From the NCBI GenBank assembly GCA_018302545.1, contig JAGVZM010000001.1, positions 169,544 through 201,543 of the forward strand: DNA of 32,000 bases, read 5' to 3'. Source of the stretch: Candidatus Woesearchaeota archaeon. Its GTDB lineage: Archaea > Nanobdellota > Nanobdellia > SCGC-AAA011-G17 > GW2011-AR18. The notes beneath the pieces are model-generated. The model had not been told where the DNA came from and did no database searches. It saw only the letters and a program-made list of their open reading frames with translations. The position numbers and the translations under genes are program-made. Below are positions 19,307 to 31,256 of the stretch, piece by piece; within the stretch, counting starts at the first letter, position 1; each line of letters opens with the position of its first letter.

Positions 19307-20209
19307 ATGAAAAGAAAATTAGTACAACAAGGTGCAGCAACGATGATGATAAGTTTGCCAGCTAAATGGATTAAAGCTAATTCCTTAAATAAAGGTTCAG
19401 AAATAAACTTAGAACAACATAATAATTCTCTAATAATTTCAGGAGACAGAATAAACACAAAAAGTGAAACAGAAATTAAGATATTAACAAATGTAGAGTC
19501 CTCAATAAGAACTTTAATAACCAATACTTACAGAAATGGATTTGACAAAATAAGAGTAAATTTTGAAAATGAACAACAATTCAAAATATTAAAGCATATA
19601 ATAAAATCAAGATTAACCGGTTTTGATATTATAAAAAAAGAGAATAATTATTGTATTGTAGAGAATATTACAGAACCAACTGAAGATCAATTTGAAAACA
19701 TTTTAAGCAAATTATTATTAAATATAGAAGAATTTTTTGAAATAACAAAAAAAAGATTTGAAAATCCAAAAGAGATTTATGATTATGAAGAAACATCAGA
19801 ATTAATACAGAAATATGATAATTTCTGTAGAAGGATAATAATAAAATACAAATATAATAACAAAAAAACAGAATTACTTTGGGCATTTTTAACATTAATA
19901 ATTCATGGACAAAGAGAATTGCATCATCTTAACAAAGTATTAAATGAAAATATCAAAATATCAAAAGAAACAAGAGAGTTGTTAGTAGAATCAGAGAATT
20001 TATTTAAATTAGTAAAAAAAGCATATTTAGAGAAAGATATTAACCTACTATCAAAAATTCATAATTTGGAAAAAGAGATAATGTATAAAAAAGGTTATAG
20101 TCTTTTATCAAAAGTCAAGAATCAAGAGACTAAAATAGTATATCATATAATGGTTGCTTCAAGGGAGTTTTACCAAGCAAATTCTCCTTTATCAGGATTA
20201 ATCATTTAA
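19307..20209 (+). CDS. AbrB/SpoVT-domain plus PhoU-like domain regulator (archaeal phosphate-uptake-regulator type)
   Basis: N-terminus RKLVQQGAATMMISLPAKWIKANSLNKGSEINL is an AbrB-type swapped hairpin. It is followed by about 220 aa of helical PhoU-like repeats. Confidence 0.7.
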   Translation: MKRKLVQQGAATMMISLPAKWIKANSLNKGSEINLEQHNNSLIISGDRINTKSETEIKILTNVESSIRTLITNTYRNGFDKIRVNFENEQQFKILKHIIKSRLTGFDIIKKENNYCIVENITEPTEDQFENILSKLLLNIEEFFEITKKRFENPKEIYDYEETSELIQKYDNFCRRIIIKYKYNNKKTELLWAFLTLIIHGQRELHHLNKVLNENIKISKETRELLVESENLFKLVKKAYLEKDINLLSKIHNLEKEIMYKKGYSLLSKVKNQETKIVYHIMVASREFYQANSPLSGLII

Positions 20210-22248
20210 TCGAAGATTTGTTTTCTATATCTAATTAATCTTCTAGAAAATTCTCTTCCAGGAATTGTTAAATCACAATCTAAAGAATAGTTATTAATAA
20301 CTCTTTCATGAATTGGTAAAAAAGTATAACTAACAATAGCATCTTGTTCATTTCTTGTAACAAATTGGAATGTTGCTGCTTTAATACCTTTACAATTTGG
20401 AAGCTTTAAAGAGGTACCAAAAGAATTACTTCTATTTTGGCTTTGATAATTATCTTTAAATCCCAATTCAGGAATGGCACTTTCATATTTTAGAGAAGGA
20501 TCTACAATTCTAGCATCCAATAATATACTTCCCCTATCTCTTCCAAGATTTTCAACAGTTAGATAAGGCCAAAATCCAAACCTAACTCCAGAAACATCCA
20601 CTGTATGCCTAGGATTACCTACAACTATAGGAATCCTTTTTCTAGCTAAAATTTTACCAGGTTCTAAAAAATTAAATCTTGCTAAAAATTTATCATCTTG
20701 ATTAAAATTATTATCAGGAGCATATAACTCAAGGGCCAAAATATAAACACCATCTCTTAGATCTTCAGGAACATTTATTGAATCAAATCTGTAACCAGCC
20801 CAGCCTTCATCATAAGAGCTCATAGTATCATGTCCATCAGGATGTATAACAAAATTTTTCGAATCATAACCCTCAAAATAAAAACTGCCATCTAAAGGAA
20901 AGGTCATACCTCTAGTCCCGCCAGGAACAGCTTTAAATCTAGAGGTTATATTAAAATTTAATTTTTCGCCAGGTTTAATGCTGCATCCTTCTTCATAATC
21001 AGGATACATCCTACATGCCCCTTTAAGTTTTAAAGGTATCAAGGCAGTTGCATCCAATCCAACTAAATTATTGTTTATTTCTAATTTTCCTGCATCCCAC
21101 TCAGCCCCAACTTCATATTTCTGAATTTGTTCAAGTTTGGGTTTATTTAGATTAGAAAATGTGTGTTCATTAGTAACTAAATCATAAACTGCAGTTCCAA
21201 CAGCACCTAAACATACTAAAGCAAAACTACCAAGAGTTGTAAACACAAAACCAGCACCAATTCTGTCGAACCAAGGAGAGTTCATTAAATATTTATTTTT
21301 TCTAGAATCAAATTCCTGAGATAGTTCTTCCAAACTCTTAATTTTTTTCTTTTCATTTAAAGTAAGACACCTATAAATCAGATTAGAATATCTATGTCCT
21401 CCATCAAAGAAATCAAATCCTAAACTAGTTAGCTTTCTTTTCAAAGATTTTTCGTATTTTCTAAAATCTAATTTCCCATCATCTTTAAGTAAACTCTCTC
21501 CAGTTTCTAAATCAATAGCAATACCACTATCAACATCAAATTCAAAAGGATACTTTCCTTGTAGAGTATAATACATACAAATACCAAGTGCATGTATTTC
21601 AGCAGATTCATCATACTCTCTTTCTATTCCAGTAAATCTACCTAATAGCCTAGGATCTGAAATTAAATGAGCACCCATAGTGGGTAATACATTCGGTTGA
21701 ACTTCATCCCTTCTTTTAGCATTAGCAAAATCAGTAATTCTAACATCAAATTCACCATTTTCCTTAATTAGAATATTAGAAGGATGTAGATCTCTATGAA
21801 AAATACCAACAACTTCATTTAAATATCTAACACCATGAATGACTTTAGAAAAAACTTGTTCAAAACAATCAATACTGATCATTCTTGGACTTTGTATCAT
21901 TTCATCTAGAGACTTACTTTCATAATAAGGTTCGACAGAGACTGTAAGATTCTCATCTTGAAAATAATCTAAAAGAGGCATTAAGTGATGAAGTTCTGCA
22001 TCTTCAATATGACAAAGATGCCTAATATCATTTGCAGTATTGCATCCCCTTCCAACATGTCTTATTGCTCTAGGACTATCTAAATTTAACCTATCAACTT
22101 TTATTATTCTTCTTTGTTTTCCAGCACCCCAATCAGAGAGATATAAAACCCTAGTTCCACCTTGCTTAAATGGTCTAAGATTCCCATATTTTCCTGATAA
22201 AATCTTGCTTAATTTATCTAAATCATCAACAGGAGAAATATCACTCAT
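20206..22248 (-). CDS. Membrane-anchored Ser/Thr protein kinase with large C-terminal extracytoplasmic domain
   Basis: Catalytic loop HRDLHPSNILI. DFA replaces DFG (ITDFANA). HALGICMYYTLQGKYPF resembles subdomain IX. Single TM helix GAGFVFTTLGSFALVCLGAVGTAVY, then about 320 aa of unassigned domain. The start is set at the ATG at 22248, which is preceded by AAGGAGGT. Confidence 0.8.
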   Translation of the reverse strand: MSDISPVDDLDKLSKILSGKYGNLRPFKQGGTRVLYLSDWGAGKQRRIIKVDRLNLDSPRAIRHVGRGCNTANDIRHLCHIEDAELHHLMPLLDYFQDENLTVSVEPYYESKSLDEMIQSPRMISIDCFEQVFSKVIHGVRYLNEVVGIFHRDLHPSNILIKENGEFDVRITDFANAKRRDEVQPNVLPTMGAHLISDPRLLGRFTGIEREYDESAEIHALGICMYYTLQGKYPFEFDVDSGIAIDLETGESLLKDDGKLDFRKYEKSLKRKLTSLGFDFFDGGHRYSNLIYRCLTLNEKKKIKSLEELSQEFDSRKNKYLMNSPWFDRIGAGFVFTTLGSFALVCLGAVGTAVYDLVTNEHTFSNLNKPKLEQIQKYEVGAEWDAGKLEINNNLVGLDATALIPLKLKGACRMYPDYEEGCSIKPGEKLNFNITSRFKAVPGGTRGMTFPLDGSFYFEGYDSKNFVIHPDGHDTMSSYDEGWAGYRFDSINVPEDLRDGVYILALELYAPDNNFNQDDKFLARFNFLEPGKILARKRIPIVVGNPRHTVDVSGVRFGFWPYLTVENLGRDRGSILLDARIVDPSLKYESAIPELGFKDNYQSQNRSNSFGTSLKLPNCKGIKAATFQFVTRNEQDAIVSYTFLPIHERVINNYSLDCDLTIPGREFSRRLIRYRKQIFD

Positions 22249-22387
22249 TTTCAACCTCCTTAACAACCTCTAAAGAAACTTTAACTAAAGTACCAGGTTT
22301 TAGTTCATCTTCTAAAATTTTAGGAATCACCAATATTGCTTGTTTTCCATGTTTTGCAACTTTTTTTGTAATTATAAATTCTTTCAT
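22241..22387 (-). CDS. AbrB/SpoVT-like mini-protein (48 aa), not in the supplied ORF track
   Basis: My translation is MKEFIITKKVAKHGKQAILVIPKILEDELKPGTLVKVSLEVVKEVENE. GKQAILVIPK...L.PG..V is the AbrB/MazE hairpin pattern. Its stop overlaps the kinase ATG (AATGAGTGA). Confidence 0.5.
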   Translation of the reverse strand: MKEFIITKKVAKHGKQAILVIPKILEDELKPGTLVKVSLEVVKEVENE

Positions 22388-23623: not shown

Positions 23624-23817
23624 AATAAGGAAACTGATAGAACAATACAACTTGGTCCTAAAGTTTATCCAAAAATTTATAGATTGAGAAAGGAGGAAAT
23701 AATTTCTTGAAAATCTTCCGGAAATTTCTGCTAAGAGTTTATTAAAATCAAAATAAAAATAGTACTATGGAAAATCTTATATATAACAAATATATAATAG
23801 ACTATAGAAAAGATATA

Positions 23818-24045
23818 ATGGCAGAATCAACAACAATTCAATTAGATAAAGAATTATTAGAAGAATTAAAGAAAGTTAAAGAATATCCTAGACAAACCTA
23901 TAATGAATTAATAGAAAAAATGATAAAAATATTTAAAAATGTAAAGAAAAACAATCAGTATGACGAATTTCTACATAGAATACAAAAACAAAAAATGAAA
24001 GAATTGTGGGATAATAAAGAAGATGAGGAATGGGAAAATGTATAA
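23818..24045 (+). CDS. Putative ribbon-helix-helix type antitoxin
   Basis: MAESTTIQLDKELLEELKKVKE resembles an RHH beta-strand followed by a helix. The 3' end overlaps the MazF-like gene. The start could instead be 23767. Confidence 0.5.
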   Translation: MAESTTIQLDKELLEELKKVKEYPRQTYNELIEKMIKIFKNVKKNNQYDEFLHRIQKQKMKELWDNKEDEEWENV

Positions 24046-24352
24046 ACCAGGTGATGTAATCTTGGCTTCAGTTCACTTTACAGATACCTTTGAAATCAAA
24101 AAAAGGCCAGCAGTAATATTATTTGAAGAGTTTGATAATTTTGTGGTTGCAGGAATAACAAGCAATATAAATATGAATGGGATAAAATTGTTGAAAAAAG
24201 AAGGAGTAATAAAAGACAGTATAATAAAATTAAATTACATATTCACAATATCAAAATTAATGATAGAAAAAACCCTGTTTCATCTAAATAGTTCCAAAAA
24301 ACAAGAGATATTCAAAGAATTAAATAAGAAGCTATCAGCATTAAATAATTAA
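24038..24352 (+). CDS. PemK/MazF-like toxin
   Basis: MYKPGDVILASVHFTDTFEIKKRPAVILFE matches the MazF/PemK N-terminal SH3-like motif. The start is set at the ATG at 24038, which overlaps the upstream stop. Confidence 0.65.
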   Translation: MYKPGDVILASVHFTDTFEIKKRPAVILFEEFDNFVVAGITSNINMNGIKLLKKEGVIKDSIIKLNYIFTISKLMIEKTLFHLNSSKKQEIFKELNKKLSALNN

Positions 24353-25490: not shown

Positions 25491-26870
25491 ATGCAACCAA
25501 TGATAGGATTAGAAATCCACATATCACTAAATACTAAAACAAAATTATTCTGTTCTTGTCCAAATAATAATGCAGGATTACCAAATACAGAATGTTGTGA
25601 TATTTGTACAGGATTCCCAGGATCAAAGCCAGTTCTAAATAAAAAAGCAGTGGAATACGCATTAAAACTTTGTTTAGCGTTAAACTGTAAAATAGCTCCA
25701 GAAATAATATTCTCAAGAAAAACATATTTCTATCCAGATATGGGTAAAAACTATCAAATAACACAATATGAATTACCATTAGGTTCTAATGGAATATTAG
25801 AATTAGCAGATAAAAAAATTAGAATTAGGAGAATACACTTAGAAGAAGATCCAGCTGCTCTAATACATCAAGGTTCAACTGTTTTAATAGACTATAATAG
25901 ATCAGGAACACCCTTATGTGAAATAGTAACAGAACCTGATTTAAGTTCGCCAGAAGAAGCAAGAGAGTTCTTAAAAAGATTATTGACAATAATACAATAT
26001 CTAAAAATATTTGACTTAAAGAATGGAATAGTAAAAGCAGACGCAAATGTAAGCATAAAACCTCATGAAAGGATTGAAGTAAAAAACATTAATGGTTTCA
26101 AAGAGATAGAAAGAGCAATATCTTATGAGATAGAAAGGCAAAAGCAACTAGTCAATGAAGGAAAACCAATAACACACAGAGAAACAAGAGGATGGAAATC
26201 AGACAAGGGTATAACTATATTTCAAAGATCAAAAGAATCAGAAGAAGACTATGGGTATATAATAGATCCAGATCTAGTTTCAATAGAATTAACAAAAGAG
26301 GATATAGAAAAAACAAAAAAATCCCTTCCAGAATTACCAAAAGAAAAAGCAGTGAAGTACCATTCAAAATATAAAATTCCTAAAATAGATGCAGAGGTTT
26401 TAGCAAATGACTATGAATTAACTGAATTATTAGAAGAAGCAATCTCCAAAAAAGTAGATCCATTATTTGCTGCAGAATGGATAAGAAGAGAAGTTTCAAG
26501 AGTATTAAATTACAGCAAAAAAGAACTACATGAAACATTTATTGCAAAGAATTTAATAGAAGTTCTAGATACTATATCAAAAAACAAAATTACAAGAAGA
26601 ACAGGGCAAAAATTAATGGAATTGTTAACAGAAAAAGACGTTAATATTAAAGAATATATAAAATCTCAAGGTTTAGAATCAGTTTCTAATACTCAAGAAA
26701 TAGAAGAGATATGCAAAAAAGTCTTAAAAAAAAATGAAAAAGCAGTAAAAGAATATTTAGAAGGGAATGAAAAATCATTTATGTTCTTAATAGGCCAATG
26801 TATGCGAGCCTCTAAAGGAAAAGCAGATCCAAAAACCTTAAACGAAATTTTAAAGAAATTAATAAAATAA
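25491..26870 (+). CDS. gatB: Asp/Glu-tRNA amidotransferase subunit B
   Basis: IGLEIHISLNTKTKLFCSC...PGSKPVLN and RIHLEEDPA are GatB motifs. C-terminal YqeY-like tail. At 459 aa it is the size of GatB rather than GatE. Confidence 0.9.
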   Translation: MQPMIGLEIHISLNTKTKLFCSCPNNNAGLPNTECCDICTGFPGSKPVLNKKAVEYALKLCLALNCKIAPEIIFSRKTYFYPDMGKNYQITQYELPLGSNGILELADKKIRIRRIHLEEDPAALIHQGSTVLIDYNRSGTPLCEIVTEPDLSSPEEAREFLKRLLTIIQYLKIFDLKNGIVKADANVSIKPHERIEVKNINGFKEIERAISYEIERQKQLVNEGKPITHRETRGWKSDKGITIFQRSKESEEDYGYIIDPDLVSIELTKEDIEKTKKSLPELPKEKAVKYHSKYKIPKIDAEVLANDYELTELLEEAISKKVDPLFAAEWIRREVSRVLNYSKKELHETFIAKNLIEVLDTISKNKITRRTGQKLMELLTEKDVNIKEYIKSQGLESVSNTQEIEEICKKVLKKNEKAVKEYLEGNEKSFMFLIGQCMRASKGKADPKTLNEILKKLIK

Positions 26871-27980
26871 TTTTAAAGTATAAATAATTCCAATTAATAA
26901 GACCACAACTAAAAATACTTTAAGAAATTTATTATCTTTTAAGTCATATTCAGGAATTCTATTACATAAAAATTTAGCCTTACTGTGCATAATCATTATC
27001 ATAATTAATATTATACCAAGACAAACAGCTCCAACAATATCCAACAATTGAATAAAACCTAAAAAACCACTTAAAACTATCAAAAAAGGAACAAAAATAA
27101 CAACACTTCCAGATAAGAGATTATTTACTTTATAATCTAAAGTTAAATTTTCTTTTAATGCAAAACCTAATGCAACAAAGGCAGTAGCTATAGAGAATAA
27201 AGCAAATAAATTAGCAAACATTCCAATACTAAAACTAACATTCATCAAACTGACTGTTGCAACTTCATTTACATTCTTTATAGAACCCATAACAAAAACA
27301 GCAAATAAGATATTAATAACAAAAGTAATGATCATTCCATAAATTATAGACTGCCTCAAAAGCTTCTTATTAGTTAATTCCTCATTCATTTCAGGAACTG
27401 CACTTATTCCAGCAAAGGCAAAAATAGCAACACCATATGGAATAAATAAATTATAAACATTAAGACTAGAAAAATTAGAAAAATCTAAAAGTTTAACTAA
27501 CAACAAACTCAAAGTAACAACTACAATTATCTTAATTGGAGTAAAAATCCATTCAAAACCGTCTATTATCTTTATACCAAAATATATGACAGGAGCAATA
27601 AGAGCAAAGAAGACAAATTGAAACCAAAAACTATTAAATCCAAATATAGCACCTAATGCTTGTCCGCCAGCAATTATATATGCAGCTAAAATCCCAAATA
27701 TACTAAGAGAATTAGCAATGAACATTATAGTTTTGCCTTTAGTTCCCAAATATTTTTCAGCCAAACCAGTTAATTGATGTTTTCCTCTTGTCCTCAAAAC
27801 AACTTCTCCTAAATATAATGTAATTATAGTCATAAAAATAGCTGTAAAGATAAAAACAATTAAGGCAGTTAAGAATCCTGCTTTAGAAAAAACATATGGC
27901 AATGCAAAAACACCGGCACCAACAGTAACACCAACAAAAGTCCAAATAGCACTAAACAACTCTTTTTTCATTAAGACCAT
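26859..27980 (-). CDS. Amino-acid permease (Trp/Tyr permease / Aa_trans-like)
   Basis: About 11 TM segments. N-terminal VGAGVFALPYVFSKAGF motif. The tracked start at 27992 is TTG, so I used the ATG at 27980. The 3' end overlaps gatB by 12 nt (convergent). Confidence 0.75.
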   Translation of the reverse strand: MVLMKKELFSAIWTFVGVTVGAGVFALPYVFSKAGFLTALIVFIFTAIFMTIITLYLGEVVLRTRGKHQLTGLAEKYLGTKGKTIMFIANSLSIFGILAAYIIAGGQALGAIFGFNSFWFQFVFFALIAPVIYFGIKIIDGFEWIFTPIKIIVVVTLSLLLVKLLDFSNFSSLNVYNLFIPYGVAIFAFAGISAVPEMNEELTNKKLLRQSIIYGMIITFVINILFAVFVMGSIKNVNEVATVSLMNVSFSIGMFANLFALFSIATAFVALGFALKENLTLDYKVNNLLSGSVVIFVPFLIVLSGFLGFIQLLDIVGAVCLGIILIMIMIMHSKAKFLCNRIPEYDLKDNKFLKVFLVVVLLIGIIYTLKLFY

Positions 27981-28006
27981 TAAAGAATCCAACTATAAAT
28001 AAATTA

Positions 28007-29044
28007 CTATTTAATTATAACATTATCTAATAATTCCATAAGTTGCTTATAGTTTTTATCAGCAACACTAATACAAATCCAAAACCACCTCAATCGTATT
28101 TTTTGATATTCATCTTTATAATTATCTAATTCTTCATCAGACATACATTTTTTATTTATCCCTAAATAATTTTCACCATTATACCTTCCAAATTTAATTA
28201 AAACTCTTCTTGCTGCAATAAATTTTAATTGTTGTGTATAACCACGATCAACAAAAACATCGCCCTCACCTTCATAATCTTCATCAGCAGCCCACCACCA
28301 ATAATTATCCTTAGATAATTTTACTCCATCTTTCTTAAGAAGTTCAAGAATGGTATTTAAGTTTACAAACTCAGCAACTTTTAAAACTTCTCTAGTCCTC
28401 TTACGAGATTTCTCTTCATCTAATAAACCATTAGATCTAAAAATAAAGTAAGCATTTCTAGCTAATCTTCCATTAGCATCAGGAAACATATGGGAAAAGA
28501 TTATTCCCATATAAATTTTGACAGCCCATCTGTCAATGTTTTTTATAGACAAGCTTTGTCGCATCATATAAAATAATTTCCTAAATTCATCAGAAGAATT
28601 ATCTGGAGGTTCTATAGGAGTTCCCATTACCCTAGAAGTAACTATAACCTTCTCCTCTCTACGAGCTCTCCACCTATTAAAAGAAAATGTATCCCTCAAC
28701 AAACCATTACTAACAGATAAAATATCAAAAAGTTTATCAGCATCAATTGATTTAAGAAAATCTATTTTTTGTTGTTTAGTAGCAATATCTAATCCTATTC
28801 TCCTAGCAAATCTACAAAATCTACTATATGAGGCCTTTCTATGAAAATCATCTGGATCATCAACCTCATAAAGGTTCAATATCTGTTCTTTAGTTATTCC
28901 CCTAGACTTGAATTCTGGACCATGCTTCACCAAATTTTCTCTAAAATCCTCTTTAGAAAGTTTACCCTCTAAATATTTTTTAATAAAATCATAACTATTA
29001 ATTATCTCTATTATTTCAAGAGGAAGAACATCCAAATTAATCAC
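28007..29044 (-). CDS. Fic/DOC family protein with variant active-site motif
   Basis: HMFPDANGRLAR aligns to the Fic motif HxFx(D/E)GNGRxxR, with Ala in place of the first Gly. GTG start inside the GTGA overlap with the upstream PIN-like gene. 345 aa. Confidence 0.7.
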   Translation of the reverse strand: MINLDVLPLEIIEIINSYDFIKKYLEGKLSKEDFRENLVKHGPEFKSRGITKEQILNLYEVDDPDDFHRKASYSRFCRFARRIGLDIATKQQKIDFLKSIDADKLFDILSVSNGLLRDTFSFNRWRARREEKVIVTSRVMGTPIEPPDNSSDEFRKLFYMMRQSLSIKNIDRWAVKIYMGIIFSHMFPDANGRLARNAYFIFRSNGLLDEEKSRKRTREVLKVAEFVNLNTILELLKKDGVKLSKDNYWWWAADEDYEGEGDVFVDRGYTQQLKFIAARRVLIKFGRYNGENYLGINKKCMSDEELDNYKDEYQKIRLRWFWICISVADKNYKQLMELLDNVIIK

Positions 29045-29724
29045 CTATTCCTCTTAATTTCATAACCAATAATCTTCTCAATCTCATCTTCAGAAATCCC
29101 GCAACCTCTCAATCTCAAACCCCACAATAAACCATCCAGAAAAGTTTTATCATTATGAACTTTATTTATATATTTATTAAACAGACCAAGTTCATAAGCT
29201 AAGACCATTAGATCACAACTCCTAACAACTTTCAAACCTTTAGTCATATATTGAAAATCTTTTAACAATTTTTCATTAACATCGATAGGTCTATGAACTT
29301 TCTTCTCTAATATTCTTTTCAAACTTTTAGGATCCTCTATTAATAATCTCATAGTCCTTTCATCAACAACATAAGCACCAGATTGAAGTCTTAAAGCTAG
29401 TGCTAAAGCTTCAACTTCCGCTCTATCTAAAATATAAATTGGTTTGTTATTAGAGATAAAAATATTATTTACATGTTCCATCAAATGATCAACATCTAAC
29501 TTAGAATAAACCTCTAAACTCCCAGTACTAATTAAATTATCAACCATTATTGCTTCTAATTTATACTTCTTACTCTCTAAAGGTTTATCAATTAATTCAA
29601 ATTTAACAGAATCAGGAATGTAAAACCTGCCCTCAAATCTAGTTTTCAAAAACTCTAAGGTCCATAATAAGTTATTCATAGCTAAAGTAATTACAGGACC
29701 AGTATCAAAAACCAAACTCTTCAT
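29041..29724 (-). CDS. PIN-like domain protein
   Basis: LVFDTGPVITLA (first acidic residue), DRAEVEALALAL, YVVDERTMRLL and SCDLMVLA give the spacing of PIN acidic residues. The ATG directly abuts the stop of the upstream HTH gene. Confidence 0.55.
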   Translation of the reverse strand: MKSLVFDTGPVITLAMNNLLWTLEFLKTRFEGRFYIPDSVKFELIDKPLESKKYKLEAIMVDNLISTGSLEVYSKLDVDHLMEHVNNIFISNNKPIYILDRAEVEALALALRLQSGAYVVDERTMRLLIEDPKSLKRILEKKVHRPIDVNEKLLKDFQYMTKGLKVVRSCDLMVLAYELGLFNKYINKVHNDKTFLDGLLWGLRLRGCGISEDEIEKIIGYEIKRNR

Positions 29725-30324
29725 CTAAAATAACCCCCTTAAAAGTTTTAGTCTTTTTATAGGACTTATAGTTTTATTCTCTTTAACATCAGATATGCCA
29801 GTCTTGCCAATATAATCCATTAATTCAAATTTAGTAATACCCAATAATTCAGCAGTTCTTCCCAATGATATCCCGTGTTCATATAACCTAGAAGCCTTAT
29901 TTATCTTAGCTTGACTAAAGACCTCTTGGATATAATCTTTAAATTTCTTATCTAACTTATCTAAAGATTTTATAAAATTTTGTATCAAATCATCAAACTT
30001 TCTATGTTCTAATATAATTAAACTTTTTTTAGCATCCTCTAAAATTTTAAGACAATCTACACAAAAAATATTCCAACCTTTAAATTTTGCATAATGCATA
30101 TCCCTTTCATAAATTTTAGCTAAAGAATAAATTAAAACAGCAACAGTTATAGTATGTTCCTCTTGATATAAAGTAGAATCATGAATTGTTTCATTACTCA
30201 CATCTTTCAAAGACTTAATATCTTCATTTTTAATAGCATTAACAGCTTTATCTAAAACTCTAATTAAATTCCTTCTTATACTATCATCCAACCTCTTTTC
30301 ACCTAAATATTCTAAGAACTCCAA
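29725..30324 (-). CDS. Helical N-terminal domain fused to a UPF0175-like helix-turn-helix (putative antitoxin/regulator)
   Basis: C-terminus ASRLYEHGISLGRTAELLGITKFELMDYIGKTGI resembles UPF0175-type HTH antitoxins that pair with PIN proteins. Only a TTG start is available near the 5' end; the first in-frame ATG is about 75 codons in. Confidence 0.5.
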   Translation of the reverse strand: MEFLEYLGEKRLDDSIRRNLIRVLDKAVNAIKNEDIKSLKDVSNETIHDSTLYQEEHTITVAVLIYSLAKIYERDMHYAKFKGWNIFCVDCLKILEDAKKSLIILEHRKFDDLIQNFIKSLDKLDKKFKDYIQEVFSQAKINKASRLYEHGISLGRTAELLGITKFELMDYIGKTGISDVKENKTISPIKRLKLLRGLF

Positions 30325-30338
30325 CTATTTATAAGTTT

Positions 30339-31256
30339 TTAATCAAGCCTTTGTTTTCCAGACTCAGAAGCAAGTCTTCTCGCTCTCAATTCTCGAAGTT
30401 GTGAATCGTGAGGGTCTCTTAAAAGTTCTTGAACACCCTTTGCTTTTCTAACAGCACTAGGAACATATTCAGGATCTAATTTAGGCATTCTTTCTTCTGG
30501 AACACCAGCAGCAAGTAAAACATTATAAGCAAAGATTTTAACTTCATTAATTTCTTCTTTAACTCTTTTAACTCTAGTCATGATGCCTTTCTCTCCATAT
30601 TTTTTAACAAGGGTTTCAGCTTGAGACCTTGGTAGTTCTTCTATATCTTCAACTTCTCTCTGCATAGTTTGGGCAAGTAAATATAAATTATGTGCATCTT
30701 CAACAACTTCAACAACATGTATTCCTCTATTAAATTCATACTTTTCAGAATCTAAATCACGTCTGGTCCAGAAAAACCTAACATTTAATGCTGCACCTAT
30801 AATTCCTCCAGCTATAGCTCCAAACAAATCACCTGTAACATAGGATCCTGCTAAAGCAGATGCTGCAATTGAGGAACCAGAAACAGCAATTTTAAATAAA
30901 TTATCTACCTTTAAACTATCAGAAAAAGGATTATTTTCCCACCAAATAGAAGTTTCATAAACTGCTCTTTCTAATAAACCAATGCCTTTAATACTATAAG
31001 ACCTACTTTTAAACTTATTAAGAATCCCCCTATAACTTAAAAAAATAGTATCATCTAAATCTTCAACCTCTTGATAAATTTTAAAAGAATCATCAGAATG
31101 GAACTTTGCAATCTCCCCCCTTCTATTTTCCAAGTAAACAGCAACAGAACTTTCTAATGAATCATGATCTCTTTTAATATCTAACCTTCTCTTTCTGACC
31201 AAAAAATCCTCAGTCTGTTCCCCAATATAACCTAACAAATTAACAGAGTCATTCAT
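30339..31256 (-). CDS. Hypothetical protein with central glycine-zipper hydrophobic segment
   Basis: FKIAVSGSSIAASALAGSYVTGDLFGAIAGGIIGAALNV has a small-xxx-small repeat pattern and is flanked by charged soluble regions. It lies 14 nt upstream of the HTH gene. Confidence 0.5.
   Translation of the reverse strand: MNDSVNLLGYIGEQTEDFLVRKRRLDIKRDHDSLESSVAVYLENRRGEIAKFHSDDSFKIYQEVEDLDDTIFLSYRGILNKFKSRSYSIKGIGLLERAVYETSIWWENNPFSDSLKVDNLFKIAVSGSSIAASALAGSYVTGDLFGAIAGGIIGAALNVRFFWTRRDLDSEKYEFNRGIHVVEVVEDAHNLYLLAQTMQREVEDIEELPRSQAETLVKKYGEKGIMTRVKRVKEEINEVKIFAYNVLLAAGVPEERMPKLDPEYVPSAVRKAKGVQELLRDPHDSQLRELRARRLASESGKQRLD

Follow-up and report, generated by a model that had tools for sequence, protein, structure and literature searches.

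Are four closely packed genes on the minus strand of a woesearchaeotal contig parts of one system, or have independent genes come to lie side by side? The question arose from a stretch of 32,000 nucleotides (nt) of Candidatus Woesearchaeota archaeon (GenBank assembly GCA_018302545.1, contig JAGVZM010000001.1, positions 169,544 to 201,543 of the forward strand), hereafter the window. A first-pass annotation, made without database searches, had described in it a tightly coupled cassette of genes for a glycine-zipper membrane protein (g1), a UPF0175-like helix-turn-helix (HTH) protein (g2), a PIN-like nuclease (g3) and a Fic protein (g4). It had proposed that the four genes could be a composite toxin-antitoxin or abortive-infection module, and that an amino-acid permease gene downstream might be co-transcribed with them. 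All four co-directional open reading frames (ORFs) are present exactly as described (Table 1). About 95 related loci were compared in all, and we consider it probable that the region is made up of three independent units (g1, g2-g3 and g4) rather than one cassette. Judged from sequence and gene order, the conserved unit is the g2-g3 operon, which is predicted to be an enlarged pair of a UPF0175 HTH protein and a COG2405/DUF3368 PIN protein.

Conservation and distribution of the g2-g3 pair

A scan of GTDB species representatives for relatives of g3 found them encoded in 288 genomes, and the best 80 loci were examined. These came from 80 different assemblies, each with one copy of the pair, which were labelled as Woesearchaeota, Nanoarchaeia, Nanoarchaeota or Nanobdellota. 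A g2 homologue was present at the g3 locus in 78 of the 80, directly upstream in nearly all of them, and the stop and start codons of the two genes overlapped by 4 nt in 71 of 86 related loci (the corresponding junction in the window is 0 nt). The pair was also found in all five of the independent metagenome contexts that were inspected. An XPD-type helicase gene lay upstream of the pair in 14 of the 80 loci and a permease gene downstream of g3 in 11, and the synteny of XPD helicase, pair and permease was recurrent. No homologue of g1 could be identified near the pair in any of the 80 loci, and a Fic homologue was near it in one other species-representative locus (L018), which belongs to a sister lineage. 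Thus, a search for a recurring order of three or four genes, which the first-pass annotation had suggested, recovered g2-g3 alone, whereas the homologues of g1 and g4 were scattered.

The two proteins appeared to have diverged together. Identities of g2 and g3 homologues to the window proteins were correlated (r = 0.83, n = 77); both tracked the identity of the XPD helicase (r = 0.70-0.73, n = 13), and that of g3 also tracked the permease (r = 0.83, n = 11). Such co-divergence fits vertical co-inheritance of the pair. The patchy, mobile and multi-copy distribution of type II toxin-antitoxin systems was not seen, the pair being syntenic and single-copy in 80 out of 80 assemblies. It had been said at the outset that placing the HTH and PIN-like proteins in conserved housekeeping families would speak against a composite module; the lineage-wide, single-copy and syntenic family to which the pair belongs goes part of the way towards this. 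Weak matches to the PADLOC candidate system PDC-S70 were obtained for g2 (E 7e-5) and g3 (E 3.7e-5), to different component models.

A conserved third gene after g3 was looked for and rejected: the largest clusters of next ORFs in 73 loci had 12, 10 and 10 members, no family was dominant, and in 32 of the 73 loci the next ORF lay on the opposite strand. It should be noted that many pair-bearing contigs carry the title 'uncultured Methanosarcinales archaeon' (L041, L045, L057, L058, L064, L066, L067, L070, L071, L077, L078, L080-L082 and L084), which is apparently a mislabelling of DPANN-type metagenome-assembled genomes.

Domains and predicted folds of g2 and g3

The C-terminal part of g2 matched UPF0175 (PF03683, COG2886) at amino acids (aa) 134-178 with an E value of 9e-5 and 22.5 bits, which is under the Pfam cut-off of 27.9; in the g2 family, 28 of 42 members matched UPF0175 at E<=0.01, the best at 4e-6. 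The UPF0175-type HTH is located at nt 29791-29925, and the model has predicted helices at residues 154-161 and 165-175, as would fit an HTH. A conserved basic tail follows it (R191, R196 and F199 in the numbering of the 199-aa ORF). In total, 349 homologues of g2 were found, mostly of 186-189 aa, and the name given to g2 homologues by JGI is 'predicted HTH domain antitoxin', the description of COG2886. The UPF0175-type HTH and PIN pair of the first-pass annotation proved to be real, its domain calls being upheld for the families as a whole.

The AlphaFold2 model of g2 was all-helical with a mean predicted local distance difference test (pLDDT) score of 84; its first ten residues were of low confidence, residues 3-8 being under 50. 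The unassigned helical N-terminal domain noticed earlier was recovered in this model as a well conserved domain of about 125 aa with six helices, in which S43, Q54, Y66, K70 and R74 are invariant and H48 and W84 nearly so, and no convincing relative of it was found. In a Foldseek search against the PDB, the best matches of the g2 model were designed helical repeats and a weak PhoU match, none of them meaningful, and weak Pfam matches to PhoU or FliS in a few family members were insufficient for naming it. Sequence and profile searches of the PDB with g2, g3 and g4 returned weak matches only.

The AlphaFold2 model of g3 (mean pLDDT 94.6) has a PIN fold with extra helices, and Foldseek placed the AF0591 PIN protein and VapC proteins on top of the PDB matches, with a probability of about 1.0 and a template modelling (TM) score of about 0.6 (target-normalised). 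The acidic residues D7, E43, D121 and E122 were invariant in 42 sequences, and E103 and E105 nearly so. Thus, g3 is likely to be an active nuclease. It exceeds the solved PIN domains by about 70-100 aa and has an invariant LW...G segment near the C-terminus. At least 429 homologues with 45-63% identity were found, of which all but two of the 120 listed were 221-250 aa long; their JGI name, 'predicted nucleic acid-binding protein', is the description of COG2405. Precomputed matches to PF11848 (DUF3368) exist for g3 and nearly all of its homologues. The disagreement between these and the Pfam-A copy that we searched (see below) points to a difference in Pfam version or threshold. We also considered HARP/PIN_5 protein-only RNase P as an identity for g3 and rejected it: PF08745 was unmatched in 42 family members, and no HARP structure was among the top 50 PDB matches.

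Gene starts and promoter-like signals

Archaeal promoters follow general rules on the spacing of the TATA box and the distance to the start codon in leaderless transcripts, and the statements on promoters made here are based on these rules. The first-pass annotation had started g2 at TTG 30324, as the longest ORF does. A start at TTG 30291, giving a protein of 188 aa, is likely because of the N-termini of the homologues and of a shared layout of TATA box, Shine-Dalgarno (SD) sequence and start codon. All 41 aligned homologues (186-205 aa, mostly 186-189) start at the position of Leu12 in the 199-aa ORF, the codon of which is TTG 30291. The layout, that is, a TATA box, about 22 nt, (A)GGTGA, 6-7 nt and GTG or TTG, is common to the sister lineages L004, L016-L024 and L037; the SD sequence of L004 contains a TGA in frame, three codons ahead of the start of the g2 homologue, which excludes an upstream extension. 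Therefore, the gap between g1 and g2 would be 47 nt rather than 14 and would hold the promoter-like box listed in Table 1. The junctions described at first (14 nt for g1-g2, 0 nt for g2-g3 and -4 nt for g3-g4) were confirmed for the longest-ORF starts, and the close packing of g2, g3 and g4 stands, but that of g1 and g2 does not. The annotated start of the HTH gene is corrected accordingly.

In distant homologues of g2, a box of the TTTATATA type ends 21-25 nt before an ATG, which suggests that their transcripts are leaderless; a TATA-like motif was present 22-50 nt upstream of the start in 53 of 76 homologous loci. The position of the box before g1 (Table 1) likewise suggests a leaderless g1 transcript. 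The g2 family appears to have two initiation layouts, a leaderless ATG in most lineages versus an SD sequence with GTG or TTG in the clade of the window, and among 88 loci (L004-L095) there were 14 TTG and 7 GTG starts of g2 homologues. We looked at the g2 promoter for an inverted repeat that might serve as an operator and rejected the candidate found: this repeat, of 12 nt with 83% match (30273-30284 / 30307-30318), was equalled in 135 of 200 shuffles and was unconserved in relatives. A scan for promoters and terminators of the bacterial type proved uninformative, the organism being an archaeon.

On the other hand, either of two starts may serve g4. The GTG 29044 of the first-pass annotation, with GAGG 5 nt upstream, is possible; the alternative, TTG 29035, has AGGTGA 5 nt upstream and agrees with the N-terminus of the closest g4 homologue. 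From either start g4 directly adjoins g3, overlapping it by 4 nt or following it after 5 nt; the SD-like sequence lies inside the 3' end of g3, and no TATA box of its own could be identified for g4 in this genome. It is thus predicted that g4 is translationally coupled to g3 here, and it is probably co-transcribed with g2-g3. The idea that the permease belongs to the same transcript was not supported: a TATA-like box of its own directly follows g4 and a permease gene accompanies the pair in a small part of the loci.

The Fic gene g4

The assignment of g4 to the Fic family was upheld. The window protein scored 23.0 bits against Pfam Fic (PF02661; cut-off 24, E 1.4e-4), and 14 out of 14 family members matched it, the best at 7.8e-8. 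Its catalytic motif, HMFPDANGRLAR at aa 185-196 (nt 28457-28492), is intact: the H, F, N, G, R and R of the motif were invariant in 14 homologues, and the first Gly is replaced by Ala in g4 and its closest homologue. Only 14 homologues of g4 were found. The inhibitory motif [ST]xxxE[GN] was absent from all 14 family members in a regular-expression search and was not seen by eye in the translations of g2 and g3, no small antitoxin gene was present upstream of the Fic gene in four other contexts, and PADLOC gave no match for g4.

Three other members of the family were solitary in differing neighbourhoods, namely after a LemA gene, after PmbA/TldD genes and on a bacterial-looking contig, and the genome with the LemA context has an HTH-PIN pair on another contig. 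The sister-lineage Fic gene adjoins the pair but is separated from it by a 30-nt spacer and has its own TATA box. By gene order, g4 is a putative clade-specific insertion between g3 and the permease gene. Because of these comparative gene-order data, we read its position in the 3' end of the g2-g3 unit as a local accident of gene packing and not as a functional system.

Some further features of g4 and its family were observed. The shorter members are 283-312 aa long, and at least one is on a bacterial-looking contig (EF-P, S18, SSB, YchF); the family is apparently common to DPANN archaea and bacteria. A 7-bp GC-containing hairpin (TTGACAG...CTGTCAA) lies within the Fic ORF at 28518-28536, immediately ahead of the codons of the catalytic motif; a run of T comes after it on the plus strand, corresponding to an A/T-rich tail on the minus strand.

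The predicted membrane protein gene g1 and its slot

Hydropathy analysis located a central Gly/Ala-rich hydrophobic segment in g1 at aa ~120-163 (nt 30768-30899). An alignment of its small family showed that this segment is kept as a physical property, and the glycine-rich hydrophobic segment on which the first-pass annotation had commented is therefore a real feature. The family is small and fast-evolving: a search of 1.84 billion cluster representatives gave 19 relatives at E<=1e-3, and relatives of g1 occupy unrelated neighbourhoods. Profile searches gave no family match for g1, and PADLOC had none either. At the ~95 related loci, neither tblastn nor a hidden Markov model of the g1 family searched against all ORFs revealed a relative. 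Thus, g1 is outside the conserved unit.

The gene occupies a variable slot between the divergent XPD-type helicase gene and g2-g3 (>30339 in the window). In the closest relative, from a sister lineage, a ribonucleotide reductase gene and an SLT-domain gene stand in the place of g1. The slot is filled by these two kinds of gene in L004, by ribonucleotide reductase and a 226-aa ORF in L015, and by differing small ORFs in L009 and L013.

Locus and neighbourhood

The window is AT-rich, with a GC content of ~24-36% per 1-kb window (mostly 27-32%). Its flanking genes are archaeal and include those for the ribosomal proteins L24e, S28e and L7Ae and an AEP-like primase. The neighbourhood is one of housekeeping and transport genes (GatA, GatB, CorA, a periplasmic-binding-type protein, a Ser/Thr kinase and a pyridoxal-phosphate enzyme), with the XPD helicase and SecDF genes slightly outside the window, and is not a defence island. 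A link to viruses was looked for in PHROG, which gave 0 matches for g1, g2, g3 and g4. The ATG of the permease gene lies 26 nt past the g4 stop codon, and alignments with permease homologues start at query residues 7-10.

Table 1 Coordinates of the genes and promoter-like signals in the window
Feature	Position	Strand	Description
g1	30339..31256	-	305 aa, ATG start
g2, longest ORF	29725-30324	-	199 aa, TTG start
g2, revised start	29725..30291	-	188 aa, likely start TTG 30291
g3	29041..29724	-	227 aa, ATG start; predicted PIN fold, COG2405/DUF3368 type
g4	28007..29044	-	Fic family; 345 aa from GTG 29044 or 342 aa from TTG 29035
Trp/Tyr-type amino-acid permease	26859..27992	-	Pfam Trp_Tyr_perm E 3e-27; probable start ATG 27971 or 27980
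Shine-Dalgarno-like AGGTGA	30299..30304	-	7 nt upstream of TTG 30291
TATA-like box CTTATAAA	30328..30335	-	g1-g2 spacer; predicted promoter of the g2-g3(-g4) operon
TATA-like box CTTATAAA	31278..31285	-	Ends 21 nt before the ATG of g1
TATA-like box TTTATTTATA	27994..28003	-	Directly after the g4 stop codon, ends 22 nt before ATG 27971; predicted permease promoter

Two other pairs of genes in the window were noticed. At 23767-24352 (plus strand), a 92-aa ORF and a gene for a 109-aa PemK/MazF-like toxin (Pfam E 2.3e-6) overlap by 23 nt; this pair resembles a classical MazEF-type toxin-antitoxin locus and is ~4 kb from the g1-g4 region. The gene at 19307-20209 (plus strand) encodes a 300-aa protein with an AbrB/MazE-type domain at its N-terminus (E 2.3e-5), and is convergent with the gene of a 686-aa Ser/Thr protein kinase at 20206-22266 (minus strand), their 3' ends overlapping by 4 nt.

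Interpretation of the region

We propose the following reading of the three units. The first, g1, would encode a lineage-restricted predicted membrane protein, expressed from its own leaderless promoter in the variable slot between the XPD helicase gene and g2. The second would be the bicistronic g2-g3 operon, conserved in single copy in all 80 inspected genomes of Woesearchaeota/Nanoarchaeia. By analogy with VapBC-type systems, g2 would probably bind g3 and keep the nuclease inactive by blocking its active site, with the conserved Arg-rich C-terminal tail (R191, R196, F199) as a candidate contact; it would probably also repress its own operon through the HTH, and its N-terminal domain may be where the RNase is released or tuned in response to a signal or ligand. 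Being chromosomally fixed and vertically inherited, the pair would most likely be a resident regulated RNase and not an addiction module. The third unit, the Fic enzyme g4, is predicted to transfer AMP or another phosphoryl-type group to a protein and would have been inserted in one small clade. What was observed are the folds, the gene-order statistics, the motifs, the conservation of residues and the promoter-like boxes; the nuclease activity, its inhibition by g2, the autoregulation, and the chemistry and target of the Fic protein are inferred.

Several observations weigh against this picture. The UPF0175 score of g2 is under the Pfam cut-off, and the Foldseek E value of g3 is only ~7e-3, as the model far exceeds its targets in size. 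The Pfam-A copy searched here gave no DUF3368 match for 42 members of the g3 family, so that this assignment rests on the precomputed matches and the fold. No inverted repeat above chance was found at the g2 promoter. Single-copy, lineage-wide and syntenic conservation is atypical for a toxin-antitoxin system, and a housekeeping role would fit it equally well. In addition, the Fic gene adjoins the pair both in the window genome and in the sister lineage, which might reflect a lineage-specific link, although we think this improbable.

The most serious of the alternatives concerns the pair itself. The g3 protein might be a housekeeping nuclease of RNA processing or turnover and g2 its obligatory specificity or regulatory subunit, derived from a UPF0175/COG2405 module and fixed in Nanoarchaeia. 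The vertical inheritance of a single, syntenic copy throughout a lineage of small DPANN genomes speaks for such a role, as do the enlargement of both proteins, the many conserved residues in the added N-terminal domain of g2, and a rate of evolution about as slow as that of the XPD helicase and permease neighbours. However, in sequence and gene order the pair is akin to a family known solely as a predicted toxin-antitoxin pair. Furthermore, no similarity to known PIN proteins of archaeal RNA processing was seen: Nob1 was outside the top 50 PDB fold matches, Utp24-type entries ranked under VapC, and HARP/PIN_5 was missing from the Pfam matches and the top fold matches alike. We therefore regard this explanation as possible but somewhat doubtful.

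The other two alternatives join more genes to the pair. In the sister lineage the adjacency of Fic gene and pair is kept at 66% identity, and in the window g4 abuts g3, with its SD sequence in the 3' end of g3 and no TATA box of its own; as the Fic family lacks a cis inhibitory motif, a regulator acting in trans is conceivable. It might thus be supposed that g2, g3 and g4 are a three-component module of this lineage, in which Fic is a second effector or a modifier of the PIN or HTH protein or of their target. This seems unlikely to us, because the adjacency occurs in just 1 of 80 other species, the sister-lineage gene is set apart by its spacer and TATA box, other Fic members are solitary in four differing contexts (one of them in a genome whose pair is on another contig), and neither g2 nor g3 has the inhibitory motif as read by eye. 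There remains the original proposal of a single composite cassette, of the toxin-antitoxin or abortive-infection kind, that would take in all four genes and possibly the permease and would have membrane, nuclease and protein-modifying effectors. What speaks for it is the common direction and close spacing of the genes in this one genome. Such a four-gene system would have been new, but it is contradicted by the comparative evidence: g1 is missing from every related locus (0 of ~95) and Fic from all but one of the 80, promoter-like boxes stand ahead of g1, g2 and the permease gene, PADLOC matches neither g1 nor g4 and PHROG none of the four, and the surroundings are of the housekeeping kind. 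The proposal is thus largely refuted by comparative genomics, and we consider it very improbable.

With the region read as three units, the pair is of interest as a toxin-antitoxin-type pair with extra domains that has become a fixed operon in a large DPANN group with very small genomes. Such a pattern suggests that a module usually seen as selfish and mobile has a resident role in the cell here, and the pair is a candidate, open to testing, for a regulated RNase of organisms that are not yet growable alone. We would go further only tentatively: the pair could be a toxin-antitoxin-derived, domesticated RNase that is near-universal and possibly essential in Nanoarchaeia (Woesearchaeales, Pacearchaeales and relatives), with the N-terminal domain of g2 as a ligand or signal sensor. 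If true, it would be an undescribed and lineage-defining component of RNA metabolism in DPANN archaea.

Comparison with known systems

Compared with Fic/Doc proteins (FICD, VopS, VbhT and Doc), the catalytic loop of g4 fits the consensus HxFx(D/E)(G/A)NGRxxR, and its best, though weak, PDB sequence matches are VopS and FICD around the motif. It differs from them in having DANGR, with Ala for the first Gly, in place of DGNGR; in a family that lacks the cis motif [ST]xxxE[GN], and no small antitoxin gene upstream; and in N- and C-terminal regions that match nothing known. The motif of Doc is DANKR, so that the Ala is a feature common to g4 and Doc. The PADLOC system PDC-S70 is similar in that g2 and g3 weakly match different components of it. 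However, the scores are weak, PDC-S70 is itself a candidate, and g2-g3 has a housekeeping context and not that of a defence island.

With VapBC systems the pair shares the PIN fold, the best structural matches of g3 being VapC and AF0591, as well as a DNA-binding-type partner encoded upstream of g3 and translational coupling of the two genes. On the other hand, g2 is of the UPF0175 HTH type and not an AbrB, ribbon-helix-helix or Phd protein, and g3 has no sequence-level match to PF01850.

The closest known relatives are the pairs of UPF0175 (COG2886) and a COG2405/DUF3368 PIN protein, which have been predicted to be type II toxin-antitoxin systems (Makarova et al. 2009, PMC2701414; Matelska et al. 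2017, PMC5499597). UPF0175 was reported to be exclusively adjacent to COG2405, and a toxin-antitoxin role was predicted for it (PMC5499597, PMC2701414). As in these pairs, the HTH gene of the woesearchaeotal operon comes first and the PIN gene second, the two overlap, the proteins are a UPF0175-type HTH and a DUF3368-type PIN domain, and the acidic PIN residues are kept. The differences lie in size, score and distribution. The g2 protein has 188 aa versus 75 positions in the UPF0175 Pfam model, and g3 has 227 aa versus ~125-150 aa in PIN structures, a six-helix N-terminal domain having been added in g2 and helices in g3, and the profile scores of both are at or under the family cut-offs. Whereas classical pairs are patchy, multi-copy and mobile, g2-g3 is single-copy, syntenic and vertically inherited.

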